From Antedon mediterranea (taxonomy: Eukaryota; Animalia; Echinodermata), in contig NC_092672.1 of assembly GCF_964355755.1 (NCBI RefSeq), positions 19,853,237-19,917,236 on the forward strand: 64,000 bases of DNA, given 5' to 3'. Below the pieces are notes generated by a model that was given only the letters and a program-made list of their open reading frames with translations, ran no database searches and was not told where the DNA came from. This document shows positions 1,079 to 27,218 of this stretch, piece after piece; position 1 is the first letter of the stretch; each line of letters begins with the position of its first letter. The translations under genes were made by a program, and so were the position numbers.

Positions 1079-1182
1079 TTTCAATTCTAAAGAACCATCC
1101 ACAGATGGCATTGTTACCACAACAGTGTTTCAATCAACTAAGAAAGATTCTGGAAAATGGAAAAAGATAAAGAATGTAAATG
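1079..1182 (+). CDS. ROCO exon: Roc switch I (FNSKEPSTDGIVTTTVFQ...KWKKIKNVN)
   Basis: Acceptor ataacag|, donor G|gtgag; open frame containing the ST.GI switch-I motif; phase 2 to phase 1. Confidence 0.85.
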
Positions 1183-4100
1183 GTGAGATAAAGCAACTTA
1201 TACATATGTTTCAACATGGCATATAAACACATTTGTCTAAATGTTGCTAGTTTTAATATTAACATTTATTTTTTTTGTGAAACTGTGTATAATAATGCTG
1301 ATGACAGACCTACTTAAATGTGACTATACACTATATTCAATTATTATGACGTTGCACAATGGTTATACCAAAAGTGTATATTAGATATTGGATATTTTTT
1401 TCATTTAGAAAGATTTTTATTCTTCTATGCCTAATGAAATGCACACATCAAACAATTGAACTACTTTTCCTTTCTACTATTTCTTTTAAACACACCTCAT
1501 ACAACCTCTATCATAATTGTTTACCTATTTCTTGCTTTCTACAGATATGGAGATATCAAAGCAAGCCCATTCAAGTGCAATAGAAAAAAAAATTGATCAG
1601 AGGTTAGAAAAAGGTAGGCACACCCTAAGCAATTAAAAAATGTTCAACATCTAACTAATGTTCCCATTGTTTTATTATTTTTATTTATTTATTTATAAAC
1701 ATAATTATTTAAAATGAATACAATTTTCATTAAATATAATGTTCTGACAAATGATTCATGTAAAGATAATAATTGAGAAATACTTTTAACAATACATATC
1801 CATTTTGTTTTGGCTTATAGAACATATGATAAAAAGTGCTTATTTAAATAATTCATTATTATATAAAGAAAAAGACATCACAATTAACATAATTATTGTT
1901 AAAATTGTTCTTTTTTTAAAAGAAGATTTGTATTCTAGTATAAATTTATTAAAAATTCTGCATTGTATTTATGTTTGAAGATTTTGTACATGGCAGCCTC
2001 CTGTAATGACATCGGGAGGTTTATTCCACACTTTGCCACCAGAAACTTGGAATTACATTTTATTTATTCTTAGGTATCTTATTGTATTGTATTTAAAGGT
2101 TTTTCCAATCAAGTTTTGTAACCCTGTCTAACAATGACCAGTTCAGTTTGATTTTCAATAGGCCTATAACACTGTATAGTAATTGTTTTTTGTTTTTTTA
2201 TTGTTTTATGTAGAAGGCAGTGTTTGAATCTGGGATAAAATCAAGAATGCTACGTATAAAAGGATGGTAGTAGGAAACAAAAACGTGAGTGACATAACTA
2301 GTATATGGGACTACGCTGGTCAACTAGAATACTATATAACGCACAGGGTATGTTTTCATTATTGTATTGTCACTTTTGGTCTGAGAGTCGCATTTAAAAA
2401 AAAATTTTTTATTGGGTTCAGATACAAATAAAAATGGAAGCTCTATAATACTAATATCTTTTTTTTCTACATGATATGTGTTCTTAACAGTTATATCTGA
2501 TTCAACCATTTTGCTAAGAACTTTTTAACAGGGTTATCATTGTGTTAGTTTCATTTTCATGTGCCATTTCCCTGTTCACACAAAACACACAAACATGTGG
2601 TTTTGTTTTTGTTGTTCCATTGATGATGTTGTTTTGGCATGTCTTAACATATTCACTCTTAAACTAGTGCCAGAGTTTGCTAGAAGGCTCCAGGGTTGAA
2701 GGGAAAAAATTACAAATTCAAAAGAAGATTGTTTAGACTTTTGGAATATTTAAAAACAAAAATGTTTAGTTTTTGATGAAAAGTTTTAAATTATTAATAA
2801 CAATTCTTCAATTTATTTAACATAATCATGACTTGGCGAAATGTGCATACGTTGCACGTGCATAAAAGTGCAATTTCAGGACACCTTTCATATTCTCAAA
2901 AATTCTGCACCCCATGGCGGGTCTATGTTTTCATAGTTCAACATTTACATCATCACTATTTTGAAACTTCTAAATATGGTAGCAGCACTATGATTTTTAG
3001 TGTAAGGGTGCAATTTGTGGACAAACTGTTTCATATTCTATTATTTTCTCACCTCAGGAAATAACTAAAAATGCGACAAATCATGCATCAGCCTCAAAAT
3101 CCCAATCAATAAATTAACACATTTTTACTTTACATTGGCTGGTCTATCATTGCATTTGAACATTGTACTTTTTTCCCCGAAGTGTAAAAATGGCAATATT
3201 TCCCAAATTTAAAGTTTATTTTACTGTTTGCATGTTCTATGTATGTTTTAGTTACTATGTCATACATATAGTAAATCATTGCCCATCAGGAGGGATGTCA
3301 TTGTACATGCTAATTAAGTAAATGTAAAGGAAGAGACAAAATAATAGAGATATTCTGTTTTCCAAGGTTAAAATATGTACAGAGAACTTATCAAATATTA
3401 TTATGAAGTGTTATGACATTTTTACTAATAAATACATTAAAAAAACTAGAGGGTACTCCGATAGTACAAACCTCCGCCTACTGTAAAATTCCCCTACATA
3501 AAATGTCTCCGGAAAATATATTTTTTTCAATATTTTTTTTATTAGCTCTAAGTATAAAAAGGCTAACTGCACACTACAAAGTTGTAGATGAGAGTTTAGT
3601 GTAATGATTATATATCCAGCCTCTCACAGTTGAGATCGCAGGTTGAAGTCCCGCTGACCCTTCAAAATTTAAACAAAATTATATGATGAGTCATTGATCA
3701 TTGTGGCTAAGTTTGGTGAGAATCAGATAAAAATAATGGTCTCTAGGCAGTAAAATAGTATTATGTTAGTTGTGACCTTGACCTATGACCTTTTCCCCTC
3801 AAATTCGAACTCGTCCGAGCTTTTGGGGTATAGATCATTGTGGCCAAATTTGGTGAGAATCGGATAAAAACTGTGGCCTCCAGGCTGTTCACAGACACAC
3901 ACACACACGCACACAAACACACAAACATACATGGGTGAAAATATAACCTCCTTGGCGGAGGTAATAAGGTGAACATGTTAAAACAATAAAAAAAAAGTCT
4001 ATTGGTAACTCTACATATTTTAATTATTTCAGTTTTTTTTGACAAGTACAGTATCGTACTGTGTTGCATTTAATGTCATGGACAAATTGGATGAGCAAGC

Positions 4101-7100
4101 TAATCCACGAGATTCGTCAAAAGTAAGTATTTTAGACAAATCAGAAATACATTATTAGCAAATTTTTAAATTGTAAATGGTGTGGTACTAAAGCCTGTTT
4201 TACTGTTGATCGTTGAGTTGCGTTGAACTGTCGGATTCAATGATTTTACAGGAAAAGGGGGTAAAAATCAACCTTGATAATCGTTAAAATCTAAAATCGT
4301 TAAAGTTGAACCGAGTTTAACTGTAACGTTAAAATCGTTAAAACTGACCAATCAAATGGCCACAAATTAGTCATTGCAGTTTGTGAAAAAAATAGGTACG
4401 TGCTGATATTTCTTGAATTTTAAAACGCAACGATGTTTTTCACGTTTTTTGTACCTTTTTAAGGTCTGATATTACAAAAAAACAAATGTAAGTCAAATTA
4501 AATTATAATATTAAAACAATTTAATTTAATGTTTGTCTTTAGTGTAAGCCTAGATTAAGATATCAGAGAAAGCATGTCCTAGGCTGGGTTGAAGCATAAA
4601 AACCTGTAACTTTTTCAATTTTCATGCGGGCCCGGCTGAGCGTGGCCGCACTTGGTTTTGTAATACTTCACGTAATTGAGAGAACCAAGGAACTATGAAC
4701 GATTGTGTAAAACTGTAACTATTGGCGGTCCGGCTCATTCATCATCATCGTTATTTTATTTTAAACTCAACGCAACTTAACGATCGACAGGAAAACAGGT
4801 TTTAAGCATGGTTCCCACTAGAATGCAACGCAGCGATGTATATTGACGCTAAAGTGCTGAAAACATCGCAGGTTTGATTTCACCCAGGCGAGGGCAAACA
4901 CAATTATTGGAAGGGCATTTTCTTACATTGGGTCGATAGTGGGAACCAAGCTTTAAAATCTGCATTTGTTTAGCAGTTTTAGCTCCAGTTTCAATTGTTG
5001 AGGCTGTACATTAAGATGCTGAGAAGGCATTAATACATCAACACAATACAAGTTGTATTTCAACACTAAATTTACTTCTCCATTGCAAGCTTTACACAAC
5101 ATCATGGATTATAAAATAAAAGCCTTGAATTGTGATGTTCATTCTAAAATTGTAACCCACTAGTTACAAAACTAGCAAAAAAGATGCCAAACCTCACACA
5201 AAGAAATTGCAAAATATAAAAAACCATTGAAATAAAAAAAAATGTAAATGTTAAAAAAAAACAGTTTTAAAAGTTTATGTCTGCATCTGCATCATCTAAT
5301 TTTTATTATTCCAATATTCTATGACTGTGACTTACCAATTCATATTTTATCATTAATCTGTCGACTGATTGACAACGTGTATGTTATGTTATGTCCCTCT
5401 CATGCACGTTGTCACTTTCTGATGCGCACCCAAGATTAATATTCTCACAGCACAAAGTCTCATATCCAAAGTCCCGTATTGCTTTCATTTTGTAGCTTAC
5501 AGATTTCAAAATAAAGGAATACTTTGTGTATAACTAAATAAATGGCCGTAAATAGTAAATAGAATTTTATTCTTGACAATTTGTTTCTTTTTTTGAAAAT
5601 AATTTGTCAGGGACCGGGAAGAGTGCGCTTTTATTATAGCCTTAAATTGTGATGTTCATTCTAACATTGTAACCCACTATACTGTAAATTTATATCCTCT
5701 TTTAACACAGCATATTAAAACAGAATCCAGCTTTCAACTTGTATGCACAAATGTGAAACATTGTCTGACATGCAAACAACACATGTGGTACATATACCAC
5801 AAAGCAACATGCATGCAAATTTATAGATTTGCAAAATACTTTTCTTGACGAAACAAAATACTGCAAGCTTGCGTCGCAACATCAATTCAAAACCACTGAT
5901 CCATTTATGTATTTTATTTATTCATTTAGCATCCATTCAACAATACATTTAAAATACATAAACAAAAAATAAAATGACATATACTACTGTCATGTTATTG
6001 AAAACAAACATGTCTGAACAACACCCCTGGATGACTTGTTTTGACACCATATTCTTTTCTGGCTGACTGACCTGGATGGTGTTTACCGGCATATTTGGGA
6101 CCCAGACAGTGGCCAGTTACTATTAATAGTTAGTAATAATAATTGTTAAAGACACTCTCATTAGGATACTGCAGAGAAAGGAGGTAGAAAATAAAATAAT
6201 AATTTCATTATTAATAGTCTGCAGTAGTATTTAATTATAACACTACACATTTGGTTTTTAATTTATACCTAATATACATTCTCATTTTAGGGTCCACTAG
6301 GAATGACTAATTTGGACATGAATTTGTTCTGGATAAGATCCATTTATGAACATACTGTGTCACAACATGGTTCAGGAAACACTATTTCAATTGACGGCAA
6401 GAACATAGAGTCACCTCCCATCTGTTTGGTTGCAACTCATGTGGACAAATTGCCTGGGACAGCATCAGAAAAAGAGGAAGAGGTAAATAGCTATAGTATA
6501 TTTATATTTGATAATTTCTTCTCTTTCTTAACTCAACTCTTTCAACATTAGCGCTCTGAGCAACTAAATGCAACTAACCTCAACTGACGTCCGCAACACA
6601 CAGAAATGTAGACATAGTTCATTTCAGTTGCCCATGTTCTATTTTTTCTGGAAGTGCAACTAAAAAGTTTGAAATGCGTCACACGTGTGGTATGGGTAGA
6701 GATCGGTTCAATGTTACCTTATAAGTGCTCACGCATACTAGTTCCTTCCTACACGTGGTAAGGTAAGTTAAGATTTTACTTTATTGTTGCTCACAAAAAG
6801 GTTGACTGTAGACAACCCATTAACATCAAAGCATTTTCAGGTCAAATGTTTTTACAATCAATCAATATATAATATGAAAATTTTAAATTGACATGAATTA
6901 CAAAGCAAAAGTGTTATAAATACATATTTAATTGAAGAATCTATATATTATTGCTACTAAATTTGTTGCATAATTTTACGTATCTCCTCCGAAACCACAA
7001 AACGGTATGTGCTCACATTTGGCACACTGATTTATTGAGGGACCGCACACGATAGACTGTCACTTTCCTGAATTTTAAGGATAAACACTAAAAACAGGCA

Positions 7101-10100
7101 CAAAATAACAGTAATTTGACGTCTCAGCGACCATGTTACATCCATGTATAAACTACACATCCTCCTCTGTTGGTATACCGCCATGGTCTACAAACACCAT
7201 GCCAGGCTACCAAATTAAAACAGTGTTTAGTCTCGGCAGCCGGTCAACTGTATAGAATGATCACGTCGTTAAAGTTTTAATTACTTAGGCACCTATCCTT
7301 TGAATAGAATTCGAGTTTGGCTCGGTGAGTAAAACGGCGTGGCCATTGATATCAATGCTTAGTACGTTCGAGTTCAAATCCGCGATAGTGTAAATAATAA
7401 GTATAAATAAAATGAATAAGTACACAAAGGAATTGCAAAATATAAAAAAAACCATTGAAATAAAAAAAAATGTAAATGTAAAAAAAAACACACACACAAA
7501 ACTAAAACGAATCCAAATGGGTGTCGTGTTTCCAAAAAATATCAAATATCAACGAAAAATAAACCCAAAATTTTAAAGTTTGTGTCCGAGCGCATCATCT
7601 AATTTTTATTATTCCAATATTCTATAACTTACCAATTGATATTTCATATTTAGTCTGTCGACTGATTGACAACATGCATGTCCCTCTCATGCACGTTGTC
7701 ACTTTCTGATGCGCACCCAAGATTAATATTCTCACAGCACAAAGTCTCATATCCAAAATCCCGTATTGCTTTCATTTTGTAGCTTACAGATTTCAAAATA
7801 AAGGAATTCTTCATGTATAAAAAAATAAATGGCCGTAAATAGTTCTGAATTATATTCTTAACAATTTGTTTATTTTTTAAAGGGCTGAGAAGAGTGCGCT
7901 TTTATTATACCTAATCATCCCATGCGAATTGTTATTAAGGCAGACAAGACTGCGTGCGAGGCTCGCACACAAAACAATTGGAAAATATCAAAACCATTGA
8001 AATTTAAAAAAATGTAAATTAATAAAAATGAACATACTGTACACAAACAAAACGATTCCAAATGGTTTGATACATTGTTGAATATGAAAACAATTTAACA
8101 TTTGTTTTTACGCAGCAATATGTTTTTCATTCGATTTATGTCCACTTTTTTATTTTCTCTGTGAATTAAATAATGAATACACCATGAAAACACCCAAAAT
8201 AATAATATTATTATTATTACATTTATTTACCCAGGGTAGCCCAAACAGTTAAAAACTGGTTTTCATCGTGAATATAGTTTGGTATTTTATACTTTCATTA
8301 GTGTTTGCGTGCATTATTTAATTCACACTGCACAACTTTTCTTTACCATCTTTTATTTTTGTAAAGTCTGAACAGTCAAAAAGTAAAGTCTAAAATTCCA
8401 TATCCAGTATTGCTTTTATTTTTTAGCTTAAAGACCCCTTCCCTGCAATTTTGGACGTTTTTTGGAAAATAATACATATATATCACTTTAAAAACATTAA
8501 ACCATGTCATTCCTTGTCTTAAATCTACGTTTTATGGTAAATTATGATAAAAAGTGAGAAACAATGCACTACCTAAGTAGCTCGCGGCGATCGACCTCTC
8601 GTGGACGGTCTTAGGCCTAGCCTGGCTAGGCTTAGATTTGTAGGCCTAGCTGGTAAACATCGGTAACGTACGAACATCGTACGCTAGCTATATACCTAGC
8701 CTGACGTTGTATAGTTGCTGCATTAATAGAGAGAAATGGCGAACCGACGTCTAAAATCCGAGTGGGTATAAAATCATAACAAACCGTTGAGGGCGGCACA
8801 TTTCCTATGTTTATACACGTGAATCATGGCGTCGTCTAACCAATGTTGTTGCTGTAACGCTCGTAATTCTTTTCTATTTGTGTATTTAGTCATCCATCAT
8901 TCACAATCATATTCCTAAAAATATCTCATATCTGTATGTCTACATTAGACTAGGCCTATAGTATTATAGTAGAATGGTGTTATCAAGTATTCATTACTGG
9001 CGGTAGCCCCCCGGCCCTCTGCAGGAAGTATAGCCACATAACAAAATGGCAGTTGTCAAGCTGAAACTAAATGCTAGGCCTACGTCTACTAGAGATGCTC
9101 TATTTAGTCTTATTACCTAGCTAGGAGATGCCTAGCAGCACCCTAGCTAAAGTAGTAGTAGTACAGTATGCAATAAAGAATTTCCAATATTATTATTATT
9201 ATTATAATAACCGATAATCCGTGCTAGGCTCGCTCGAGCAGGCCTACTCGAGGTACTACACAGCATCAGCGAAACTATCTAGCTAGGGCCTAGAGCTGGG
9301 TACAGTATATAACAAAAACGCGTCTTAATTCAATCCAAATTGAAATAAAATATGTTAAGATTTGCCCATATAACATTAAAATTGTTAAGGGTGTTGCAAA
9401 AAAAAAGATACTGCTATTATGTGTGTTTTAAACGTTCTTTTCTAACTACCTTTTTAACTCAACCCATCGGAATTTCCCATACAAAAACATGTGGCGAAAT
9501 GGTTTGTTTACAATCTATACCCACTCGGTGAAATTTGAGTGACGTCATCGCGGTTCGCCATTTCTCTCTATTGTCTTTCTATTTTTGCCAGACTCCGTTG
9601 ATACAATTGGGGAAAACCCGGTATTTTCGCTGAAAAGTTAGGAGTCTTCCATTTGTTTTGGCCTCACGATCGATCGAAAAGTGGGCGAATTACAGGTGAA
9701 AAACAAAAATATCAATCCGCGCGCAATGCATTTAGGGATTTATAGCGGGCCGCTATATTTATTAAAATCGACTTATTTTTCACATTTTTAACCGTTTAAA
9801 GACGAAAAAAGTTATCGCAATAGGACCATATAGTATTATTTTTACATTAAATATAGTTTGTGATCTTAAATTAGATCTAAAAAACGTAGGAAATGGGGCT
9901 ATTAAATATATTTCAAAAGCCCCTTTCTCACAGATGTGCCTGCAATATACCGGTACAGTGCTGGCGTCGTGCCGGTATCGTTACCGGCATATACCCATTC
10001 TCATCGGACTATCGTGCCGGAAATATAACCGGTATATACCGGCTTTCTGTGAGAAAGGAGTCGGGCATATTCGGCCAATAAAAAGTCTCTGACAAAATAA

Positions 10101-13100
10101 TTATTGAGGGCGCCCTTTATTGTTATTATTTTTGTCTAGCGATGATATGGCGGCGAATGTTAAGTTACAGATTATTATCTTCCTTTATAGCATATTTATG
10201 CAATACATGCTATGTACAGTATATTGTGCATATATTATACAGGTATAGCAATTAATTTGCCGTCATCGGCAATCTGTAAAACACCTTAGAAGGCTGTAGG
10301 CCTACAATTTACAAGGCGACGAAAGGTCAGGCACCAACAAACAAAGAGCTAATGCTGGCCTACCCTAGCGGCCTATATAGATTATGCTACAAATTTCTTC
10401 TTGTCCCCTTATTTTAAGCAGCTCTCTTATCTCATTATCCCTCCAGTTCGACATTATTATTGTTAATTGAATTGAATAGGCGCCAAAGTGATACACTTGA
10501 CTGCGCAAGGTGTCAAAGCCTCGACGGGGGGAACCCCGGAATATAACGGCAATACGTTCTCACAGAATGCCCGTCTGGCATTGCGGGGAATATCCCTAGA
10601 ATATTACTAGGTCTAAAGCAGGTCATGTCGATGCCGGCATGGTGCCGGCATGATGCCAAGACGACCCGTTCTCACAGAAAACCATACCGGCATGGTAATG
10701 GTATATTCCCGCAATATTCCTGGCACACAACTCTGTGAGAAAGGGGCTAGTGTGAAGAGATAGTGTGGAACAAAATCAATGGCTGTAAAATAGTAGAATA
10801 TTTTAATAATTTGTCAAAATACTTTAATCAGAGTGCGCTTTTATTATTAAAGGTGTGCTTCAACAATGCCTTACACCTGCTTCTAATAAACCTAGGTCAT
10901 GCAGTGCCAGCACCATGTTTGTAGAAAATCGCATCTGCTCGTTCTACGAACTACAGCGTAAGGTGGTGTATGGCATGTTGTGCAGGTTGGGCAAGCCCGT
11001 AGCCAGGGTTGTAGGGGGTTGTAGGGTTCAAACGAACCCCCCTTTTCCTGAAGTGCCCTTTCAAACCAGACTAGCCTAGGCATAGGCATAGGCCTAGGCT
11101 AGCCCATATCATGGTTTTTTTGCCTTTTCTGTAGTATAGCCAGCAGGAGAATGTTACTTTTATTACTAAATAGCAAGATCGTATCATTAAAATAGCTATT
11201 AATCCCGCCGTTTCCTGTGTATTTTCAATTTTCAAATTTAAAAATGCGTCATTTGCCGTCTCTGACTATAGTATTAGCCCCGCAGAAAAAGTTACACTGC
11301 GCATGTATTGCTTACGTAGGGGACGTTCGCCACGCGTAGTGTGTAGAGAGTGTTATGGTTATTCTTGGCCTGCTTATATAAGGAGTTCTAATTAACAACT
11401 CCATGCTTAATTACTTGATCCATTTTGCGTAGGTCTCCTCTTTGTGACCATCACTCTTTTTACACAATAATTTCCGAAAGCGACCAGTCCACCATTTTTA
11501 AGGAGCACCTGCGCAATCGCGCTCCTCAAACCAGCAATTAGCGTCGCCAAAGGGGATTCCCCTTTCCCCTGCCTGCTTTCAAGCGCCAATTATCTCGCAG
11601 TGTATCCAATCCGGTGTCACAGAAGCCGAACAAGTACCAACCAAATGGTTTCTTTTTATTAAACAAAGCAATTTGATGATTCTTTTCCTCGAAAAATGTC
11701 AACCATTTTGGTTATTAAAATCTATCTTCTAGTATTTAGCCAGCATCGCATGTGTGACAGCCCTTTGTAAACACAGCCAATTGACAATTAAATAAACTGT
11801 AAAATGATACTTTGTAACTTATTATCAATATTTTGTTGACTATATATTGCTTGTTAGATTTGTATTAGTGAAATAAAGGTAAATAACTCCGCATTTTCTG
11901 TCCGATTCTTTAGGCCTAGCTAGGCTAGGTTAGCCACTACTCTAGCTAGTTATAGGCTAAGCCTAGGTCTAAAATAGTAGGCTAGCCCAGCCAGGTCAAG
12001 TAGACCTAGTTGGCCAATGACTCCCACCCAAGTTAGACCATGGTCTTATTATTTTGTAACGTTTTGTACGATTGTTGGATGGTATCCTGCAGGCGCCAAC
12101 CCCCTTTTTGGGAAAAAAGAACCCCCCTGTAAAAACCCTGGATACGGGCTTGTTGGGGAGGACAGGCAAAATGGCCACAAAATGTATTTATGAATTTGCT
12201 CTTCCTTCATCCAATATACATGGTAGATGGATAAAGCTATTGTTGTAACCACCTGACTATGTGGCGTAGGTTTTTTTTTAATATATTTATATATATATAT
12301 ATAAATCCAAAGGCAAATTACTGAAAAAATCACAATGCTGTGGGTATCAGTTGCTGGATCTCAATGGAGATACAAAAATAAAATCGAAAAGCTAAATCAA
12401 AACGATAAAAGTAAAACAGCCAGAAAAATTAGCAGAGCTTTCATGCAACTAGTTCTTCATCCGTGCAAGTTAAGGAATTTGGATAACGTCATAGCATAAG
12501 AACTGGCAAGTGCTGCCTGGGTGGACAGGAATAAAAGTAATAGAGACAAGAGAGACAGGGTGGTGAATGGTAGGTGGAGAGTACTGAATAAGAGTAGAAA
12601 ACAAAGAAGGTAGCTTCTTGGAATGGAACTAAAAAACAGCTTAAATGGTGGTTAATGTTAACACTTAAAAAGTGGTAATCAATGGAATAATTTTACCGAT
12701 CTGGTGGGTGTATGTTCCTAATGTTAAGTCAAAAAGGTTTTATGGTTTTAAGTAGTAATTCCTAGTGGTTTTCTTTGTCTTTGCGAGTTTTTTCACTCCA
12801 TTTGACATCGTGGTCTATTGCAATAACTCTGAAATTTGCAATCGAGTGACCAGCTGAATAAAAATGTTCGGCTACAGGTTGATCAAGCTTTACTGTTTTG
12901 ATAGCTGATCTGTGTTGTGTCATTCTCATACGGAGAGTGTTTTTTGTTTGATAATGACGTTTTTGGTTAGACAATTAATTGATTGTCTTATCCGAAAAAT
13001 GCGGCCAGTTTGGTTACTCTTAAATACTCTTTTATATATATATTTATATATATTTGTTTTTTTTATTCCTTTATATCTATATATAAATTTACGTAAGGGC

Positions 13101-16100
13101 AAAATTCGGTAAATCGCGCGTTATTTCTAGAATATTTACTCGATGGTATTTGAAGTTGGTTAGAATCTCGGTACTGATTGTAACCCTGTTTACTAATTAA
13201 ATTGAGTTAGATAATTAGTTATTGACAATTAAAACGAATTTAGGTTCAACGATTTGTCCCAAATAGGGGTGTTTTCCGATCGTGGTATACACTGTCTAAT
13301 GGATGTCCATCTTGGAAAATACCTGCACACAATAATACGAGGATGCTTCGCATTTTCCTATCTCCTCCTACGATAATTGTTTTTAATAGCTGAAAACCGG
13401 TTGAACAGCTCGAGTACAGTATCATAATGTTGAAGACAGGCAGATTTAATATACGTTTATACAAATTGATTTGCGATGAATGGAACATTAAAACAGGGAC
13501 AGTTTTAAAAAAGTATTAAAACGTAAATGTTTTACTGCATTTAGTGGTATATTATTTACGGAAGCCTGTTCGGACCACAAGTTAACTATATTTTAAAAGC
13601 TGTTATCTGGCGGCCGCCACTTAATTATCTGGCGGCCGCCACTTTGGATCAGAGGCGATGTTGCATAAGGAACGCCATCGCTGCCTCCGGCAGCCAACTT
13701 TAATTCTATTCGGCTCTTTTACAACCATTATGTTTGGCTCTTTTAGCATTCGGCGAATTTCTATTCGGCCCATTAACCATATTTACGATTAAAGATGTGT
13801 TGAATAACCTAAAATTAATTCATCTTTTAACAAATTTTGAGAGATAAAGGTTAAATTATTATTGTTAAAAGTTAGGCTGACACTAGACTAGGTCTAGCTA
13901 GCCTAGGCCATAAATCAAACCTTTTCCTCTTTCAAAATAGTCAATAAGGTGGGACAATTGCAAGTTCTCTATCACATTAATCATGTCAATAAAATGATTA
14001 GTCATATTGAAATAACCTTCAAATTCATTTAATTCAACCAACCAAACACTCTACATGCTGCATCTATTTGTTTTGTAAACTTTTCATAGACTCATTTCCA
14101 GCCGTTGATTTTCTTCCATTTGACCACATGTAAAAGGTTAGAGTTTAATTGCGCCGTATAAAAAAAATCAAAAAGAGCCGAACGTAATGGTAAATGGGCC
14201 AAATAAAAAAGAGCCGGATGCTGAAAGAGCCGAACGTAATGGTAAATGGGCTGAATAGAAATGCGCCGAATGCTAAAAGAGCCGAACGTAATGGTAAAAG
14301 AGCCGAATAGAATTCAAGTTTGCTGCCTCCGGCAGCGATGGCGTTCCTTATGCAACATCGCCTCTGATCCAATGCACGTACATGTGTCACGTGACGGGAC
14401 ATGTACTAATAATTAAGTTGCGGCCGCCAGATAATTAAGTGGCTGCCGCCAGATAATTAAGTGGCGGTCGCCAGATAATTAAGTGGCGGCCGCCAGATAA
14501 CAGCTTTTAAAAAATAGTTAACTTGTGTCCCGAACGGGCTTCCGTAATTATTGATTATAATTGCCTATAAAACATTTTTTAAAGTATTTCGTTACTGAGG
14601 AGATAAAGAATATATTTAAAAATTGTTCTTTCCATAAGACAAGTTTCTTCTTCGGAAGTAGGTCTAATTCCCAGGGTGCTAATTTTAGTTGACTACATAA
14701 ATCATTGTGTCTATTTATTCGTTTTCTGTAAGCGACAATGTACTATAGTCCTGCGGTACGTACATTTGAAATCGCCAGTTTTTTTTTTACGCTGAAATCA
14801 CTGTGTATTCGAGAACCATCTGTGGACGCGAAGCGAGTTTATAATAATGTAGACACTAATTTATTCTTGAGCTATGGAGAATTACTTTTTTTTCCGAAAT
14901 AAAAGATGAATGAATGAATGAATTATATTTGCCCATGCAAAGCATTTAACCACATATTAAAGCAGAAAAAGACCGTGCAGAGCACGTGTTACTGCTAACC
15001 ACATTAACTTATCTGTATATAATTCTTAACGATAAACCATGAATATGTATGTGTGCAACGTTTTGACTGTTTTCAACAGTCTTCTTTTGGCAAGCCGAAG
15101 AACTTCGGCAAATCTCAGACTAAGGTTACACATAAGGGGCGCTGTTCTACAACTATCAATGTGCTTCTAGCAACCACTAACATCTAGTCATTGCCAGAAG
15201 GAAACTGTTGAGTTGGAAACAGTCAAAAGGTCGCACATGGTCTATCGTTAAGAATTATATACAGATAATTAATATAAAAACCAGATGAAATAATTTTTTG
15301 AGTACATTAAATTAGAGAAAACGAAGTACCTATTTGAGATTTTGAATAAATACAGTATGAATCAAATAAAATAACCTAGTGTTGTGTATGTAAACCACTG
15401 ATCAAGTTAATCACCACACATGCCGATAAATAATATATATAACTAAAAATACACACCCTCTCCTCATCATTTTCTGTGTTATCTAGAGTTTAGGATTTGT
15501 TTGTAATACAATAATTTATTCATTCACATTACCAGTGGCTAGTCTTGTAAATGCTGATACTGGTCACCAGTCATTTTTTTCTATCAAGTATTCTCAGTGA
15601 ATTTTTCATGTGTCAACACTTAGCTTGAAATTATGCATGTAGGCCCCAAATCCAAGATGGCAGTCAAATCCAAAATGGTGGTCAAAATCCAAAATGGCTG
15701 CCAATTTGATCTAACTTGTACTTATAATGCCTATTAATTTTCCTTTCTAAACTGTTTATTCTATTTGTTTACCACACACATTGAAGTTTACAAGACACCG
15801 TCCATATAACTTATCAGATGTAATAGTATATAGCAATGATCGTATTTATTAATTGAAGGTCATGAAGATGTACAAGAAAATGTTTGATAAAATGGAAGGA
15901 ATGCCATATGCTCACCATGTAGATCGTGAAATGTACATGGTTGATAACACCATGAAATCACATGAAGGTATTACAAAACTTAGGCGAAACGTTGGTAGAT
16001 ACATGAAGGAAATGGTGAGAGAAGTTCCAGTAAAGTGGGTTAATTTACAAGAACGTTTGCAAAGAGAAACAGAATTGTGTATTACATTTGAAGAGGTAAA

Positions 16101-19100
16101 GTTTTGATTGTTATTCCAATGTAATTGCATAATATTATTAAACTATCGCTCTCTGTAGAGCGATAGCCTATTGTTATTGCTAAAAACTTCATTTTTTCTG
16201 CTCATTTTTTGTGTCACGCAGATCTTGAAAGTTATGTTGGCCAGCAGATGCACGTATATATGTAGTTGTGCAACAAACTTTGGTTTAATGAAAATATGGT
16301 CGCGATTTTTTGAAATTCTTAAATTGACTATAAATTCAAAACTAACAGCCTTTTAAATTGTGAACATTGATATTTTCACGCGTACGCGCACTTTGAAAGT
16401 TAAAAATGCTCAAAATCAATTCCTAATCAAACGTTTCAGGACATTTTAAGCATTTCACATTTTTCAAAAAAATTTCAGCTTAGAAAGACCGCTTTTGCAC
16501 TTGATTGTTGTTGAATTTGTTGATGAATTATGAATGTAAAATAATGACACACGTGCACGCCAAACTAAAAAAATCTTGCACCTAAAAATGGTTAATTTTA
16601 TGCAAATTTGTGTAAAAATATGCCTATTTTGAATCAATTATAGCTATCCGGGATGGCTGGTGACCCCCTATTTTTTTCACTTATTGTAAAGGGTAATGAG
16701 TTTTAGATATGAATTCATGTGAAATTTAGACCATAAGTATTTTATGACGTCATCATATGACCATCTGAATTTTAAAAATTGGATTTTCATCTCTTTCGTC
16801 ACAGTTTGTCACATTCAATAGAGCGCATATCGGGTAAACGTTATCAATTTTCTTCCAATTTTCAATAATATTAATATTTCTCCTTCAGACATATTTATTT
16901 TTAATTTGAAAATGTCATCATATTCAAACAATTAAATAAACGTGGGTGGTGTAAAATAAAAACTAACCGTCAACAAACCGTTTACAATGTCAATACAGTC
17001 AACTGCTTGTTGAACGATTTTGATCGATGCTATGCTGTTTATACAATCGTTGTGGTGCAGCTTACTGTAGGCTAAACCTAATAAATAGCATCTGTATGTT
17101 ACGATGCGTTGCACGATAGCCTAACTCGTCACCATGACAAGTTCAAATTTAGTTATTTCATTGTTACTTTGTTTACCTACAGTACACTAGCAATATTTAT
17201 AGCCATAACAGTACTGGGATATAAATGTGCTAAAATCTATACAGAGCTTATATTTTCGTAAATAAATAAAATTCTATTTGTGAACACTATACAGACCAAT
17301 ATACAATACTAGAATGGGTATACATGCGATTGTTACCTGACAATATACAATACTAGAATGGGTATACATGCGATTGTTACCTGTTTTGCTGAAATTAAAC
17401 ACAAGGTTTTCTTGTCCTGGCCTATCATTGAATTTTCCATTATATTTTCTAAAGTTCTACGCTAAGTTATTTTTTTATTTAAATTTAATTCTTTATTAGG
17501 TTTCCGGGATTGGCACTGAATGTGGAATATCCAAAGAGGGGCTCGCCACTGCCATAGAGTATATGAATGACATTGGGATCATTTTGCATTCGAGTACTAA
17601 CGAAAAACTGAAAAACACTGTGATAACAGATCTTAAAATGATGATTCGAATGGTGACAAAAGTGATCACAGTAGTTAAACCGTCTATTAAAGTGGTAGGT
17701 AGATAATGTATTTTATTATGATATCAGATTGTCAAAAATGTGGATGTATAGGTGATGTTAATAATCTGTTCTTAGTAACTTGATGTGAAACAGTATAATT
17801 GTGTTGATCATGTGACTGTACTGTTTAAAGTAAGAATAAACTGTTTTTTTTTAAATATAGAAGCAAATGAGGGTGCTGTGGAAAAGGCTTGATGAAGAAG
17901 GAATACTGGAGGAAAGACTGCTACGGTATTTATGGGAACAGGAATTAGAGGAAGATCCACATCGCTTTGAAATCTTTACTGAAGTGATGAAGACATTTGG
18001 TTTGCTCTTTGAGAAATTGAAGGTAAGTTAAACATCTTATTTTAGATTGGCTATTACTTAAATTAGCTTAAATGTTATACTTATATTTACAACACTTTGC
18101 TTACATCCGCAGGTACCTGAAAGTAACCGGGTATTCTTGGTTCCATCTCGGATGCAAACCAAGAAAGAGAGTCTTGAAGTTAAAACGGACGAGGAAAATA
18201 TGGTATCGATCTATCTTACACCTACGGACTTTCTTCCCAATGCTGTATACAATACATTGGTTGTTGCATTTCTTGACTTGATGGAGGTCAAAGGTAGACC
18301 TGGTGAACCAGTTGTGTTTCAAAATCGCAGTGAATTTGACTTTAAGGATCATGGGGTTAATTTAGGCACAGTGAAAATTGAAAACAGGCATGCATTAAAG
18401 GTACAGACATTATTTATGTATTTAGTTTCAAATAAATATATTAGAACAGAAGATCAAACATAAAATTTTGAACTAATTTTGCCACTTTTACTGAATTAAA
18501 ATGTTTATGAATGAATGTTGAACATGAACCTACAAAAGGTAATTGTAATAATCCAATGATACCTTTTTGCATTTATTAACTTTTTTTAGTAAACTTTTCT
18601 TATCAGCTTGAAATATCTCATCTAATTAAAGTTCATGGCAGTACTACAGGCCCAATAAATGAACCACATCGAAGCTTCTGCATAGAGGTAAGGATAATAT
18701 GTGTTAACATTTTCAACAAAACAGTACTAGAATGTAATAAAAGAATATTTTTAACTTAAGTTTTTCATTATGTTATAGGTGTTAGGATATCTGAAGCATC
18801 AACTAGAAAATGTGCTTGTCACAAGTGAAGGAGTTGGCTACAATCTATGTGTGTTGTGTAATGTTTGTAATCCAGCAGAGAAGCCTCATTTACATGGTCT
18901 CAAACGATGCTTGGAACAAGGTTTCGATGGTGTTAAATGTGGCGATAAGCTCATGGATACCACTCGTTTAAAGAACCTATTTTCGGAAGGTAATTGAAAT
19001 TTGGAATTATCATCAACATTTTCTTCAATAGCAATATTATTAGTTTGTTTTAATGACATAGGAACATGTGTGTATGAGATATCTGCAAAGACCCTTTGAA

Positions 19101-22100
19101 TAATAGATAACATTTATTCTTATTATTTACAACCTAATGAAAATCAGTTGACTAATTAATTGGCATTTGGGAATTAATTTTTTAACATTTTTTTTTTAAA
19201 AAATAAAACAGATTTAGGCTAAGCTAAACATTTATCCCAAATAACTTGAGGCGTCATGTAAATCTATTGTTTTCCCTGCAGAAATCTTTCTTCACACAAT
19301 AAAGATTTTAAATCTATCTGCAGTATTTATTCTGGGAGGCCTGCATAACTTTAAAATAAATATTTAATTTAATAATTTAATTTCTTTTTCTCACTAATAC
19401 AATGTACTGATAGATATTTTTTTTTGCATAGATACACCAGATGCTACTACTACTACTCTGGCTATAAGCTCATCATTACCATCAGGTCAGTTGATTGATA
19501 AAATTTGTTAATTCTAAATTACATAAAAATTACATACAATTTAGAAATGGCAATAGCTAGTTCAGAACAGTTAAAAATATGTTATATGGTACTTGATATG
19601 TAAAGTTTGGAAAATGTAATAGTATTTTAAACAATTTATAATAAGGAACATGTCAAAGATGGTGGTTTCTGACAAATCTCATGATTTCAAAATACATGAA
19701 GGTCTACTTTGAATGGCATAAAACCGTGTATCTTAGTGTTGTTAACAGAATAGTTTATTTGATAAAAACTAACTTTAAAATGTGTATTGAATAAATTGTG
19801 ATAATGTTTTTGTTATTATGACTATGTATATGTTTATTTTGTATAGATACACCGACTACTACTCCTCTGGCTACAAGCTCATTACGAACAGGTTAGTTGA
19901 TTATCATTAGATCATTAGAGATCATTGGATCCTTGGATCTAATGTAGAAAATATTAGCTAATGTTGAAATGGCAATAGCTAAATGTAGAAATAACAAATT
20001 GCTCATATGTAATTAGTACCAGCTAAGGTGAGAAAATGCTTCACAACTATGATGAAATTACTGTTGGGAACTACATCAAGAAACCTGAAGGATAGATACA
20101 TTATGTGAAGTTAAATATAATATAAAGTTGGTAATACATAAGGATAACAACTAAGCAGATTCTGTATTAATCACTTTCAACTACCATGCCTTTTTTTGGG
20201 GGATATTAATTATTCCCTATGCAGCAATATAAATTGTGACCTGATTTATGGAAAGTTATGGTGTTTTAAGGATTTATATTCATACATACAGACATATTCA
20301 AACAATGATTTTCAACAACTATGATTATTATGCTCAATTTATATCATAATTTTGGAAACTTGTCTTCAACTATTTAGAGTTGTCAGAGGATAATTTTAAA
20401 CAGTTGATTGCAGACTTTGCAAAATGGTTTGATGATCGTGGTCTCCTTAAAAGGCTACAAGTTATATGCACAGAAATAGTAGATGACATTCAAGAGTTGA
20501 AAAGGGTTACCAGTACAATCAACCTGTTAGCTCTTTTAACTGCAAATGGACAATTGAGTCAAACAAATCTTTCTGTCCTGTATGATGCAATAAAAGTAAC
20601 AGAACAATTTGGCTTTCAGTCAGTAATTAAAGAAAAGCTTTACATACCTGTCCTAATACAGCTTATTAGCTTTAAAATCACTCATTTGTTGGCGATGAAT
20701 GGTTTTTCCCATCAAAGTTTTTTTTCCAATTATAAAATGAATATCATGACAAAAAGCATAACTTTCCAACCATTTTTTGCAAACCATATCTCTATGTTTT
20801 TTAAGCCTCTTTATCTCCCCACTAGACTAGACTCATTAATGTACAATTGATAGAATCAGATGAATTAATTGTGTGTTGCTTGTATAATAGGTCAGAGTAT
20901 AGCATCCGATTAAACTCTGGGCAATCAAACAAAAGCCAGCTTTTGCTAAAGGTTTTCTGATTAATTACCATTACCTTAATTTCATAAACTAGATGGTACG
21001 CAAGCAAAGCGAGCGTACCATCTAGGTCGTGCCCACACAGATGGTTCTCGAATACATAATAATTTCAGCGTTAAAAAACTGGCGATTTCAAATGTACGTA
21101 CCACAGGACAATAATACATGTCGTTTACGGGAACGAATAAATAGACACTGTGATTTATGTACTGAACTAAAATTAGCACCCTGGGAATTACTTCCGAAGG
21201 AGAAACTTGTCACAAAATGAGACCAATTGTTTTAAGTCAAATTTAAACAAACTTAATTTGTGTTTTGTATGTAACATTAGGGTTGAGGGATGGGAAAGAG
21301 GATGGGTGCAAAGAGGAACAATTAATTTTTAAATATATTCTTTATCCATGTAGTAACGAAATATTAATTGTTTTCATGTTTTACAAATAATATACCACTA
21401 AACACAGTAAAACATTGCGATGTAATACTTTGTTGAAACTATCACCGTCCTAGTCGATTGAAATAGTACAGTACATGTAACGATACATCACTACGACATG
21501 TATAATATGTTTATATAATGTAAAACAATTTTTGAAAACCCCCCCTATTCGTGGCAAATCATAAATTCGATTTAATCGTCAATAAATATTAAATTATCTA
21601 ACTCAACTTAATTAGTAGGCCTAATTGTTTTCAATTGTTTCTTAGAGCCAATTCATACTTAAGTTGGTTCCTAACCCTACCCACCAAAGTTGTTCTGCGT
21701 TTAGGGCATGTGATGCACCGTAGGCCTATCCTCTACTGGCTTTACAACGCTACTCATGCCAGTGAGGGAAGGGTGATGATGTCACATGGGTGGTTTAACT
21801 GCAATAATAAAGATTTGTACATAATATACGGCGACTGAAAACGCTAGCTCATTATCCGTTAAAAAAAATCTAAAAAATCTATATCCAACCTCTGCAGCAC
21901 AGATTGAAAAAAAAAATGGATCGAATTTCTGTTATGAGTATACAGTACTTGCCTTTACGACGCCTGAGGGAATAGACACTTGTGGAACAGAGATTGGAAT
22001 GTTCCATTCATTTCAAATCAATACATTTGCATAAACGTATATTAAATCTATCAAAATAGTATTTTTTTAAGAAAATCGGCCTGTCTTCAACATTATGATA

Positions 22101-24004
22101 CTGTACTCGAGCTGTTCAACCGGTTTTCAGCTATTAAAAACAATTATCGTAGGAGGAGATCGGAAAATGCGAAGCCTCCTCGCATTTTTTGTGGCGGGTA
22201 TTTTTCAAGATGGACATCCATTAGACAGTGTATACCACGATCGGAAAACACCCCTATTTGGGGCAAATCGTTGAACCTAAATTCGTTTTAATTGTCAATA
22301 ACTAATTATCTAACTTAATTTAATTAGTAAACAGGGTTACATCAGGTGGTTAAAATCAGTACCGAAAGTACGAACCAACTTTATATACCATCGAGTAAAA
22401 ATTGTAAAAGTAAGGCGCGATTTACCGAATTTTGCCCTTACGTAAATTTATAAATAGATTAATTGTATTTAATAAATTCGTTTTAACCGTCAATAACTTA
22501 TTATCTAACTTAATGTAATTAGTAAACAGGGTTACATCAGGTGGTTAAAATCAGTACCGAAAGTACGAACCAACTTTATATACCATCGAGTAAAAATTAT
22601 AGAAGTAAGGCGCGATTTACCGAATTTTGCCCTTACGTAAATTTATATATAGAAGCTCAGGTACAGGCATGAATTTTAAACATAATATCTGGTTAATTGT
22701 ACATAAATAAAATATTTATAGCAGAAAGTAGTAGTTAGGTAGTTTTACCTAATGTAATAACATGTCTGGTGACTCCCTAGAAGGTGAAAAAAAGATGTTG
22801 GATATACGGTGGATAATCTTTGCTTTAGTGATCTGATAACATTTTTTACTACACCATAGCTTTTTAAAATGCCTCTCTATTTACAAAATTTGTGTACAAA
22901 GAAATAGAGATTTTACTGTGTAATTTGAACTATGCTCCCACTGATAAGAAAGTGCTTATTTTCAACAAACTCGTGTAACACAAATAAAATCCCAAAAATT
23001 ATGAAACAAAGGCGAAACTATAGATCGATAATTATTGGAATGTATGATCAATAGAAATTTTTTGCCCGCACCTGGCCTTTAAGATAATAACGTGAGAATT
23101 TAATTATCCACATTGATAGTTTTTTTAATGGTTATCTAGTTAGTAAATCACAATATATTTTCAATTTTGTGTATGGTGTGATGATTGTCTAACATGTGTC
23201 TTCTATGCATCATTTATGATGAGGATTTTAAACTTTTGGCAAATTACAATAGTATGGTCACAAAGATTATAAGTTGAATGGGAAGAATGTTTTAATGATT
23301 TAAAAGATTTCCTGTTTTGTTGACCTTCAAACTTTTTATTTTCTTTAAATATATTCATTATTCAAAATGTTGGTACTGAAATTTTTTTCAAATCTGCTAT
23401 CTCGGCCTTTTATTGTGTCCACAAAAAAAAGACGACCCAGTGACATATATTACACTGTTGATTTTTTTTAGGTGAACTATCTGACGATAACTATCGGGAA
23501 CTGCTCAGCAAAGTGTCATCGTGGTTCAAGGAATCAGAGAAAGTCAATCTATTGAAAGTTATACTTTGCAAGTGTGAACATATTTCTGTTGTCGAAATAG
23601 AAAGAAGGAATGATCCATTTGAGCTGTTTAAGTTACTTGAAGGTCCTGGAATCATTAGCCAATCAAATATCGATGTTCTCATTGAAATCATTGCAATAGG
23701 AGGAATGGAGGGTGTGTATGAAAGCATCAAGCACTTGATACCAACCTTTGCTGGATTTGAGAAATTAATCATCTCTGAACGCTGGAATGATGTACGAAAG
23801 GTGATCAGATTTGGTCTTAAAATAAGTAATGCAGATAAAGTAAAAATTGGACAGTTGCGTGGCCTAAAGGTTAAGGAATCAGATGATGTTTGGACTTTAA
23901 TATTTCAGCTAGTAATGAAAGATACATTTACTAAAAACAGCACAGAATTCGTTCGACTACTTAAGGACAATGACATGGATAGCCTTGCTACATTATTGGA
24001 ATAG
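1079..24004 (+). CDS. Multi-exon ROCO-family gene (Roc GTPase-COR-Cys/His segment-S/T linker-DED-like domains), 5' part outside window, possibly pseudogenising
   Basis: Manual splicing of GT-AG exons with compatible phases: 1079-1182, 1545-1613, 2214-2347, 4033-4122, 6291-6482, 15859-16095, 17500-17694, 17861-18022, 18113-18400, 18607-18687, 18779-18989, 19432-19485, 19847-19891, 20378-(20850), 23472-24004. Roc motifs EPSTDGI, IWDYAGQLEYYITHRFFL, PPICLVATHVDK. COR motifs VPVKW, EYMNDIGIILH, EEGIL, VMKTFGLL, FLVPSRM. Confidence 0.88.
1545..1613 (+). CDS. ROCO exon: Roc insert (DMEISKQAHSSAIEKKIDQRLEK)
   Basis: Polypyrimidine tract then ctacag|, donor G|gtagg; 69 nt, phase 1-1, in frame with the previous exon. 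Confidence 0.75.
2214..2347 (+). CDS. ROCO exon: Roc G3/switch II (SIWDYAGQLEYYITHR) with in-frame TGA at 2225-2227
   Basis: Acceptor ttttatgtag|, donor AGG|gtatg; WDxAGQ-type motif. The frame reads EGSV*IWDKIKN... from this acceptor. Confidence 0.85.
3446..3965 (-). mobile_element. Helentron-associated non-autonomous element (HINE/DINE-1-like)
   Basis: Sub-TIR acctccgcc/ggcggaggt, CA microsatellite, terminal stem-loop and CTAG end; inverted copy at 58451-59061. Confidence 0.8.
4033..4122 (+). CDS. ROCO exon (FFLTSTVSYCVAFNVMDKLDEQANPRDSSK)
   Basis: tttcag| ... |gtaagt; 90 nt, phase 0-0; continues THR-FFL as in Roc domains. Confidence 0.85.
4191..4803. mobile_element. MITE (Harbinger-like TIR), abutted by a short MITE at about 4804-4953
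   Basis: aagcctgttttactgttgatcgttgagttgcgttga / tcaacgcaacttaacgatcgacaggaaaacagg; the neighbour has TIR aagcatggttcccacta / tagtgggaaccaagctt. Confidence 0.7.
5190..7910 (+). repeat. Intronic direct duplication flanking exon 6291-6482 (5190-5640 vs 7420-7910; third partial copy from about 7968)
   Basis: Shared block atgcacgttgtcactttctgatgcgcacccaagattaatattctcacagcacaaagtctcatatccaaa ... gaagagtgcgcttttattata. Confidence 0.85.
6291..6482 (+). CDS. ROCO exon: Roc G4 (TNLDMNLFWIRSI...PPICLVATHVDK)
   Basis: ttttag| ... GAG|gtaaat; 192 nt; overlaps ORF 6303-6551. Confidence 0.9.
8432..9901. mobile_element. Kolobok-like non-autonomous element (TTAA flanks) containing a nested TIR element
   Basis: ttaa|agaccccttccc ... 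ggaaatggggcta|ttaa; TIR imperfect. Confidence 0.5.
8728..9569. mobile_element. Nested TIR element with AT flanks (ISL2EU/Harbinger-like)
   Basis: Perfect inverted ends aatagagagaaatggcgaaccg (8725-8746) / cggttcgccatttctctctatt (9551-9572). Confidence 0.72.
9918..10748. mobile_element. Harbinger-like MITE with internal TIR copies
   Basis: agcccctttctcacaga / tctgtgagaaaggggct; repeated ttctcacagaa and CCGG subterminal motifs. Confidence 0.75.
10992..12152. mobile_element. TIR element with apparent 5-bp TSD (TTGGG)
   Basis: caagcccgtagccaggg / ccctggatacgggcttg; ttggg on both flanks. Confidence 0.7.
12400..12960 (-). mobile_element. Penelope-like retroelement 3' fragment (GIY-YIG endonuclease C-terminal part)
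   Basis: ORF 12762-12974: QTKNTLRMRMTQHRSAI...QPVAEHF..AGHS...FRVIAID, typical of the PLE GIY-YIG; degenerate hammerhead-like motif at about 12432-12468 (-). Confidence 0.8.
13076..14840 (+). mobile_element. Helitron-like non-autonomous element, split by an IS3EU-like foldback
   Basis: 5' TCTATATATA start; colinear with the inverted copy at 20988-22652. Confidence 0.65.
13557..14546. mobile_element. IS3EU-like foldback element with 6-bp TSD ATTATT
   Basis: TACGGAAG...CTTCCGTA termini, long inverted arms, tandem aattatctggcggccgccactt units; ATTATT at 13551-13556 and 14547-14552. Confidence 0.78.
15004..15272. mobile_element. Degenerate inverted-repeat relic, Penelope pLTR-like
   Basis: Arms ttatctgtatataattcttaacgata / tatcgttaagaattatatacagataa with a decayed hammerhead-like stem (agactgttgaaaacagtc). 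Confidence 0.55.
15859..16095 (+). CDS. ROCO exon: end of Roc and start of COR (VDNT...EVPVKWVNLQERL)
   Basis: tgaag| ... GAG|gtaaag; 237 nt, phase 0-0; overlaps ORF 15853-16107. Confidence 0.88.
16140..17153 (+). mobile_element. HINE-like non-autonomous element, different family
   Basis: 5' hairpin ctatcgctctctgtagagcgatagcc; sub-terminal cgatagcc repeated near the 3' end before a stem-loop and ttagtt. Confidence 0.6.
17500..17694 (+). CDS. ROCO exon: COR (AIEYMNDIGIILHSS...VITDLKMMIRMVTKVI)
   Basis: tttattag| ... GTG|gtaggt; 195 nt open frame with a COR signature. Confidence 0.88.
17861..18022 (+). CDS. ROCO exon: COR (WKRLDEEGILEERLLRYLW...EVMKTFGLLFE)
   Basis: atatag| ... AAG|gtaagt; 162 nt. 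Confidence 0.88.
18113..18400 (+). CDS. ROCO exon: COR (VFLVPSRM...DFLPNAVYNTLVV)
   Basis: ccgcag| ... AAG|gtacag; 288 nt. Confidence 0.88.
18607..18687 (+). CDS. ROCO exon (LEISHLIKVHGSTTGPINEPHRSFCIE)
   Basis: tatcag| ... GAG|gtaagg; 81 nt, phase 0-0. Confidence 0.8.
18779..18989 (+). CDS. ROCO exon: COR C-terminus with Cys/His cluster (CVLCNVC...HLH...C...C)
   Basis: ttatag| ... G|gtaatt; 211 nt, ends in phase 1. Confidence 0.85.
19432..19485 (+). CDS. Ser/Thr-rich linker mini-exon 1 (DTPDATTTTLAISSSLPS)
   Basis: tttgcatag| ... G|gtcagt; 54 nt, phase 1-1. Confidence 0.75.
19847..19891 (+). CDS. Ser/Thr-rich linker mini-exon 2 (DTPTTTPLATSSLRT), paralog of mini-exon 1
   Basis: ttgtatag| ... 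G|gttagt; 45 nt, phase 1-1; downstream intron sequence is also similar (gttgatt, gaaatggcaatagcta). Confidence 0.75.
20378..20850 (+). CDS. DED-like exon A: one death-fold domain, then loss of homology after ...IKEKL (about 20640)
   Basis: Phase-1 acceptor tatttag|; ELSEDNFKQLIADFAKWF aligns with exon B ELSDDNYRELLSKVSSWF, and LSQTNLSVL with ISQSNIDVL. The frame runs to TGA 20848-20850 through UTR-like sequence. Confidence 0.7.
20988..22652 (-). mobile_element. Helitron/Helentron-like non-autonomous element between the two DED exons
   Basis: On minus: TCTATATATA 5' end (5' segment tandemly duplicated); 3' hairpin ctagatggtacgc...gcgtaccatctag ending in CTAG; inserted between T and T. Confidence 0.72.
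22653..23078. mobile_element. Kolobok-like short element
   Basis: agctcaggtacaggca / tgcccgcacctggcct|ttaa imperfect TIR. Confidence 0.45.
23472..24004 (+). CDS. Terminal exon B: tandem DED-like pair, stop TAG at 24002-24004
   Basis: Phase-1 acceptor ttttttag|; two helical units with DED-like patterns (FELFKLLE.PGIISQSNIDVLIEII; FGLKISNADKVKI...VWTLIFQL). The DED call is from pattern recognition. Confidence 0.75.
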
Positions 24005-27075: not shown

Positions 27076-27218
27076 ATAGGAATAATTAGTTCAATGTAGT
27101 TTATTTCAAGTGCTTTATAGTTGTTGCTTTGTTTTTTTTTCCAATTTATATTTGTGTATGTTTTTTTTACAATCAATCATTGTGAGTTTATTTTAAATAC
27201 TTACATATTATTGTAAGT

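Follow-up and report, generated by a model that had tools for sequence, protein, structure and literature searches.

Work on ROCO proteins has been almost confined to LRRK2 and DAPK1, the latter with the domain order kinase-ankyrin-Roc-COR-Death. Invertebrate proteins that join ROCO cores to immune adaptors have been proposed as signalling receptors: ROCO-TIR and MyD88-like proteins in Aplysia (PMC9334734), Roc-COR-TIR and kinase-Roc-COR-Death-TIR proteins in sea anemones (PMC5094078), and Roc-COR-Death proteins in mollusc Atlas clusters and in sea urchin. In the passages of these papers and in these clusters the adaptor is Death, TIR or CARD, and no DED follows COR. Bacterial LRR-AP-GTPase-COR conflict systems are described as a repeat sensor, a Roc-COR switch and a variable C-terminal effector drawn from at least 24 domains (Kaur et al. 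2021, PMC8195603). The brown-algal LRR-ROCO genes, candidate immune receptors, are clustered and expanded, with many broken copies, exon shuffling and one C-terminal domain replacement (PMC3341825, PMC11378527). Here we analyse a ROCO locus of the feather star Antedon mediterranea in a window of 64,000 nucleotides (NC_092672.1, 19,853,237-19,917,236, forward strand; all positions below are window positions). We consider it reasonably probable that the locus belongs to an expanded crinoid family of kinase-less ROCO GTPases, that its core is spliced via linker mini-exons to a tandem DED, and that the product is an intracellular immune signalling scaffold.

The closest relatives are crinoid RefSeq ankyrin-Roc-COR-DED proteins (XP_071944718.1, XP_071944627.1 and XP_071948768.1; P0094, P0089 and P0003 among our working labels for retrieved proteins). 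The core is up to 95.6% identical and the linker mini-exons and the class of DED pair are the same, so that the locus is a member of this group; it differs in bearing a premature stop and in combining a subfamily-A core with a cassette of subfamily-B type. Human DAPK1 resembles the crinoid proteins in that its Roc-COR follows ankyrins and is itself followed by a death-fold domain (a C-terminal death domain, PMC3726526). In contrast to DAPK1, the orthologue P0094 lacks an N-terminal kinase, the crinoid C-terminus is a tandem DED instead of Death, and the crinoid genes are multi-copy and fast-turning instead of single-copy. The kinase (and WD40) that follows COR in LRRK1/2 is found neither in the window model nor in P0094. 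Compared with the bacterial systems, the crinoid family is animal, has an ankyrin rather than a leucine-rich repeat (LRR) sensor, and what varies in it is an exon cassette that supplies death-fold adaptors or HEPN. In the brown-algal genes, by contrast, shuffling mainly concerns the N-terminal LRR exons, and the passages on them mention no DED. NLR/STAND proteins share the design of repeat sensor, NTPase switch and death-fold output, whereas their NACHT or NB-ARC core is absent here and the core is Roc-COR. Other combinations are on record, such as amphioxus DED-NACHT (PMC2575513), annelid Roc-caspase (PMC11463336) and sea-cucumber LRRK (PMC11507063). We found no description of Roc-COR-DED proteins or of crinoid ROCOs in the accessible parts of the open literature, although the architecture may be listed in figures, in supplements or in subscription papers; the text supplement to PMC11378527, a paper that depicts about forty animal ROCO architectures, holds no match for DED. 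The locus is a real ROCO gene, and its crinoid family is undescribed, yet annotated in RefSeq as 'uncharacterized'. What specialists may find notable is the exchange of cassettes; the design itself (repeat sensor, Roc-COR, variable adaptor tail) is already known from bacteria, algae and molluscs.

The window DNA is AT-rich and animal, and its nearest named proteins come from the feather stars A. mediterranea and Anneissia japonica. An earlier note, made from the letters of this DNA alone, had proposed fifteen phase-compatible exons splicing into Roc-COR, a linker and tandem DED-like domains, with no kinase. We arrive at fourteen, all on the + strand:

1079-1182 (+): exon 1 in the window, Roc switch I region with STDG (G2-type); matches P0094 from residue 275, where G1 lies at 257
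1545-1613 (+): exon 2, helical insert inside Roc; 23 of 23 residues identical to P0094
2214-2347 (+): exon 3, Roc G3 motif WDYAGQ; Pfam Roc E 0.097; bears the premature stop
4033-4122 (+): exon 4, Roc
6291-6482 (+): exon 5, Roc, G4-type motif VATHVD
15859-16095 (+): exon 6, end of Roc and start of COR-A; in frame, two codons short of P0094
17500-17694 (+): exon 7, COR-A, Pfam E 3.6e-6
17861-18022 (+): exon 8, COR-A, Pfam E 0.013
18113-18400 (+): exon 9, COR-B region by the predicted fold of the orthologue P0094; no Pfam COR-B match
18607-18687 (+): exon 10, COR-B region
18779-18989 (+): exon 11, end of COR, with a Cys/His cluster that may bind metal
19432-19485 (+): exon 12, phase-1/1 Thr/Ser/Pro linker mini-exon; about 14 copies in P0094
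19847-19891 (+): exon 13, second linker mini-exon, a diverged copy of exon 12
23472-24004 (+): terminal exon, intact, a whole tandem DED by prediction, 176 residues

The thirteen exons from 1079 to 19891 are each bounded by AG/GT with compatible phases, and phase-1 AG acceptors stand at both 20378 and 23472. Joining exons 1-13 to 23472-24004 gives a 797-codon model to which RefSeq ROCO proteins align without frameshift. Over exons 1-11, 561 of 587 residues (95.6%) are identical to P0094, an A. mediterranea ankyrin-Roc-COR protein, and, judged on sequence, the match of the joined model to the RefSeq ROCO proteins is far beyond chance. Pfam finds COR-A in exons 7 and 8 and DED at 23474-24001 (E 1e-4) and 20380-20637 (E 0.0049), in every case under the gathering scores. 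The motifs STDG, WDYAGQ and VATHVD in exons 1, 3 and 5, which we take to be Roc G2-G4, are common to paralogues. The exon for the Roc P-loop (G1), intact as GKEGAGKT in P0094, lies upstream of the window, and so does the N-terminus, where P0094 has ankyrin repeats. The final exon closes with a stop at 24002-24004, and only linker and DED exons come after COR. Of what the note had claimed, the missing kinase is borne out, in P0094 as well; COR and G2-G4 are there, although Roc is incomplete in the window; the phases, the AG/GT borders of the thirteen internal exons and both acceptors stand, but 20378 does not belong to the series; the profile search it proposed returns COR-A and DED, if only below the gathering scores; and an in-frame TGA in exon 3, which leaves the frame not open, had been overlooked. 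A kinase-less Roc-COR ahead of a tandem DED finds support in the sequence, in the predicted folds and in numerous annotated paralogues from crinoids. That the architecture is that of a large annotated crinoid family with N-terminal ankyrins could not be seen in that earlier reading.

The tether between core and cassette is predicted to be disordered where the exon-12-type linker recurs in P0094. There residues 864-1198 hold about 14 exon-12 units, against two mini-exons in the window, and tether length varies strongly among close copies.

For the last exon, AlphaFold2 with 49 relatives predicts six plus five helices (predicted local distance difference test, pLDDT, 95; predicted TM-score, pTM, 0.90). 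Foldseek ranks the tandem DEDs of caspase-8 and cFLIP top (TM up to 0.69; no row with E < 0.001). In a wide structural search (VIA) the closest fold is the caspase-8 tandem DED (Z 14.7, root mean square deviation 3.4, 164 aligned; four caspase-8 rows within 1 Z), followed by vFLIP and cFLIP (Z 10.7-12.6; vFLIP 11.3-12.6), whereas single Death, PYD and CARD domains reach Z 7.8 or less and Death domains 7.2 or less. As a prediction, the reading of exon 23472 as a tandem DED is well supported, and the death fold that had been claimed for this exon is upheld; of the linker followed by tandem domains, 23472 is whole and 20378 is a single, truncated DED. Fold and tandem arrangement are like those of caspase-8, cFLIP and vFLIP (4zbw, 8ybx, 2f1s), but the cassette is only 11-14% identical to them, sits at the C-terminus and has no caspase domain. 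Pfam DED scores 22.9 bits on the cassette against a gathering score of 35.9, over the first domain only, so that no tandem DED is called at the gathering level, and the sequence profile of the cassette finds no DED in the PDB better than E 1.8. The predicted fold of P0094 (pTM 0.62) comprises ankyrins, Roc-COR and a disordered tail; its best Foldseek matches are LRRK2, LRRK1 and C. tepidum Roc-COR (E 1e-17 to 1e-15, about 650 columns).

Family searches with two cores returned at least 29 and at least 38 proteins, mostly crinoid, as database matches listed and not as a genome count. Among the matches listed, this DED pair follows COR in 39 of 61 crinoid or unnamed COR proteins and in none of six non-crinoid ones. 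Pfam places HEPN in three and Death in five of the 22 without the pair; P0094, which ends in linker repeats, is another. Nearest to the core in the Atlas are clusters of mollusc Roc-COR-Death proteins; kinase-less ROCOs that end in a death fold are thus widespread, and in the searches made the DED pair is the form that crinoids have. Longer proteins with the cassette gave at least seven matches, all crinoid among those listed, which is weak evidence on range; Atlas DED clusters of similar length hold a few cnidarian and echinoderm records, and the cassette itself may be wider than crinoids. Further architectures seen in these searches are Anneissia ROCOs with a C-terminal DZIP3-type HEPN domain (P0100, P0104, P0107), an Antedon model with two Roc-COR units (P0092) and a sea-urchin Roc-COR protein with Pfam PF02135 (P0136).

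The cassette is not confined to ROCO proteins. A Pfam scan of 86 cassette relatives found Roc and/or COR in 15, NACHT in 9, TIR in 4 and ZU5 in 2, and NB-ARC-TPR, kinase, Rel, RIG-I helicase, B-box and NHL in one each; caspase and Death were found in 0 of 86. This DED pair is present in crinoid proteins of the RIG-I-like helicase, Rel-homology, TIR, kinase and NB-ARC-TPR types (P0083, P0040/P0150, P0015, P0010 and P0004), and in the RIG-I-like protein it occupies the position usual for CARD. That it turns up on RIG-I, Rel, TIR and NACHT proteins alike suggests a single adaptor fold in crinoids for tasks that vertebrates divide among CARD, PYD and Death.

Cores and cassettes of the family disagree in their trees, which we built from the 36 of 68 rows with a core match of at least 200 residues and a cassette of at least 120. 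In the core tree, subfamilies A and B are split by one change with support 100. On the cassette tree the same split needs eight changes, or six in a careful tree without four long rows, and one change occurs in 0 of 200 bootstrap trees of the latter. The approximately unbiased (AU) test on the cassette tree rejects core clades (all A, p 4e-90; window with P0093/P0097/P0098, p 0.0009; P0001 with P0126, p 0.0003), for groups picked after both trees had been seen. Pairwise identities run in opposite directions: window and P0001 share 95% in the cassette and 29% in the core, P0097 and P0126 98% and 30%, whereas window and P0097 share 21% and 80%, and P0046 and P0089 28% and 88%. The window joins a subfamily-A core to a cassette otherwise found on subfamily-B cores. 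The conflict points to likely recent cassette swapping between distant family members, as far as automated gene models from tandem clusters, which may be mis-joined, can tell; DNA was seen for the window locus alone, and the single-exon cassette is known from there only. P0001, P0002, P0093, P0094, P0097, P0098 and P0126 are all recorded on a contig of one and the same length, as would suit exchange inside a gene cluster. Provided that the gene models are right, the exchange would show how immune signalling is rewired in an invertebrate through the swap of a single exon. More tentatively, and with the odds rather against it, crinoids might run combinatorial receptors: the tandem-DED exon would be a plug-in output, swapped at a few percent divergence between ROCO cores that are only 29% alike and common to NLR, RIG-I, TIR and Rel proteins, with several cassettes per core as alternative last exons, so that recombination or splicing could rewire one GTPase sensor to different partners.

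The 3' end of the locus is a row of cassettes, broken, intact and broken, with the following features around the terminal exon:

20378-20640 (+): truncated cassette of another DED class, one DED, no good phase-1 donor; the frame continues to a stop at 20848-20850
23952-25620 (+): 107-bp tandem repeat, 15.6 copies, starting inside the last exon
25972-26084 (+): decayed second-DED remnant of a 20378-type cassette, with a frame change and a stop; 58% over 26 residues to P0056 and P0055
26113-26213 (+): duplicated 3' flank, an 87% copy of 20765-20865; marks two 20378-type cassettes flanking the 23472 exon

The 20378 cassette shares 88.6% identity with residues 13-100 of P0070; the match ends at 20640, where P0070 enters its second DED. 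None of the six phase-1 GT sites of this exon scores above 1.9, while the 13 true donors lie at 2.3-12.2 (by a leave-one-out matrix built from only 13 sites). A series of fifteen exons running through 20378 to 23472 was rejected; 20378 is a half-cassette without a usable donor. The unit of the 107-bp repeat consists of the last codons, the stop and the 3' flank of the DED exon, and further tandem arrays lie downstream at 25799-25916, 26136-27077 and 27218-27407.

The in-frame TGA at 2225-2227 is codon 62 of 797, and all three nearby acceptors keep it in exon 3. A frameshift reading of exon 3 was dropped, as P0094 aligns in the stop-bearing frame. Codon 62 is Gly in P0094, and G is read in every covering contig from 4 of 4 public runs (8 contigs from no more than 3 samples); these contigs differ from the window elsewhere too and may be other alleles, paralogues or sister species. 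Because of the stop, the window copy is read as a null allele or a very young pseudogene, which is the probable explanation; an assembly error at 2225 is the less probable one. At least 12 exonic differences between window and contigs are listed, 10 non-synonymous and 2 synonymous, on which we base no inference about selection, as the contigs may be paralogues. The public runs listed for this sequence include no RNA run. Among 15 of 312 contig joints listed there is no exon-exon join; the contigs of the public runs span introns and cross exon borders, and have no bearing on expression. With its stop the window copy is a poor reagent, and the finding is the family.

Several observations weigh against a ROCO-DED scaffold at this locus, in addition to the choice of AU groups after the fact and the possibly mis-joined models noted above. 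The core carries the stop, and exon 6 has an in-frame deletion of two codons relative to P0094. The P0094 model has no DED and the sister paralogues P0093, P0097 and P0098 bear a different cassette class, so that the join of core to 23472 rests on position, phase and one RefSeq model of A. mediterranea, P0002, in which an exon-13-like peptide is fused directly to a 95%-identical 23472-type cassette. The RxDL motif is absent from the cassette and occurs, anywhere, in only 4 of 145 cassettes. Its absence is not decisive, because RxDL is missing in caspase-10 and altered in caspase-8 (PMC4915230). There is no literal helix-2 FL in the cassette; a conserved L-K and two hydrophobic residues stand at 27-30 and may be the counterpart of the caspase-8 patch. 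The second DED has five predicted helices, and the lack of caspase and Death among the 86 relatives gives no sign of a link to apoptosis.

The alternative that fares best, although we regard it as unlikely, is that the native last exon was a 20378-type cassette, now broken, and that 23472 is an orphan copy which came to lie downstream of a gene in decay; in that case core and 23472, though neighbours, would never form one protein. The first acceptor after exon 13 is indeed 20378, remnants of its type lie on both sides of 23472, and the stop in the core, the P0094 model without cassette and the nearest relatives of the 23472 cassette, which sit on subfamily-B cores and an NB-ARC protein, all fit such a history. 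It sits less well with the 23472 exon itself, which is fully open behind a phase-matched acceptor with poly-T. Nor did tblastn of 86 relatives find other core exons between 19891 and 23472, and P0002 joins the same linker peptide to the same cassette in the same species.

How such a protein might work can be outlined. N-terminal ankyrin repeats, which lie upstream of the window and are seen in the orthologue, would bind ligand; the Roc nucleotide cycle and a COR-mediated dimer switch would then alter the clustering of cores, and the DED pair, on its flexible Thr/Ser/Pro tether, would draw in partners with DED pairs of their own (TIR, Rel, kinase, NACHT, possibly caspase-8/FADD) through homotypic contacts. 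Over evolutionary time, duplication of the phase-1 last exon has probably allowed distant cores to exchange the output cassette, and the broken 20378-type cassettes flanking 23472 are probably debris of this turnover. Later work on C. tepidum Roco reportedly found that GTP favours the monomer, so the switch may run in either direction. A nucleotide-linked dimer cycle has been proposed for ROCO proteins (PMC4104024). In our judgement, homotypic recruitment of TIR, Rel, kinase or NACHT partners that leads to an NF-kB-type output is no less likely than activation of caspase-8, because the DED pair is found on such proteins and a caspase in none of the 86 relatives. The analogy with NLRs and the immune receptor role suggested in the earlier note draw their support from association, since the same DED pair occurs on NACHT, NB-ARC, TIR, RIG-I and Rel proteins; the NACHT or NB-ARC core of an NLR is missing. 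A large kinase-less animal ROCO family with a death-effector output would offer a simple system for studying whether Roc-COR by itself can switch oligomerisation, like the STAND ATPases in NLRs.

Instead of nucleating assemblies, the tandem DED might act as a FLIP-like brake or decoy that caps or sequesters DED assemblies, with Roc-COR controlling its release. Short cFLIP and vFLIP, inhibitors of cell death, likewise consist of a tandem DED without caspase (PMC4915230), and vFLIP and cFLIP are the next fold matches after caspase-8, which outscores them by only 1-2 Z units. The order of sensor, switch and effector suits an activator better, as does the presence of this cassette at the effector position in NACHT and RIG-I proteins, and we hold a brake to be improbable. 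Little credence is also given to a non-immune role of the kind known for LRRK1/2 and Dictyostelium Rocos, be it in membrane traffic, in the cytoskeleton, in regeneration or in development, with the DED pair as a generic docking module: characterised ROCOs do act in trafficking and morphogenesis (PMC11378527, PMC4104024) and the immune role of these genes is so far our inference, but the lineage-specific expansion, tandem clustering, broken copies and innate-immunity partner domains speak for immunity, and the same traits underlie the immune role proposed for brown-algal ROCOs (PMC3341825).

The remainder of the window holds features of other kinds. A single open frame of 221 codons at 33094-33759 (+) has no Pfam match at E up to 1 and weak PHROG matches (E 0.075), and is possibly a remnant of a mobile element. 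By eye, 40154-41251 (-) and 31279-32141 (+) are decayed frames that we take to be reverse-transcriptase-like, of the long interspersed nuclear element (LINE) type. An 810-bp repeat, 95% identical between 3-806 and 39196-40006 and with internal inverted segments, is likely a transposon copy. Two short AG/GT-bounded stretches at 60030-60092 and 60747-60821 (+) resemble exons of another gene.

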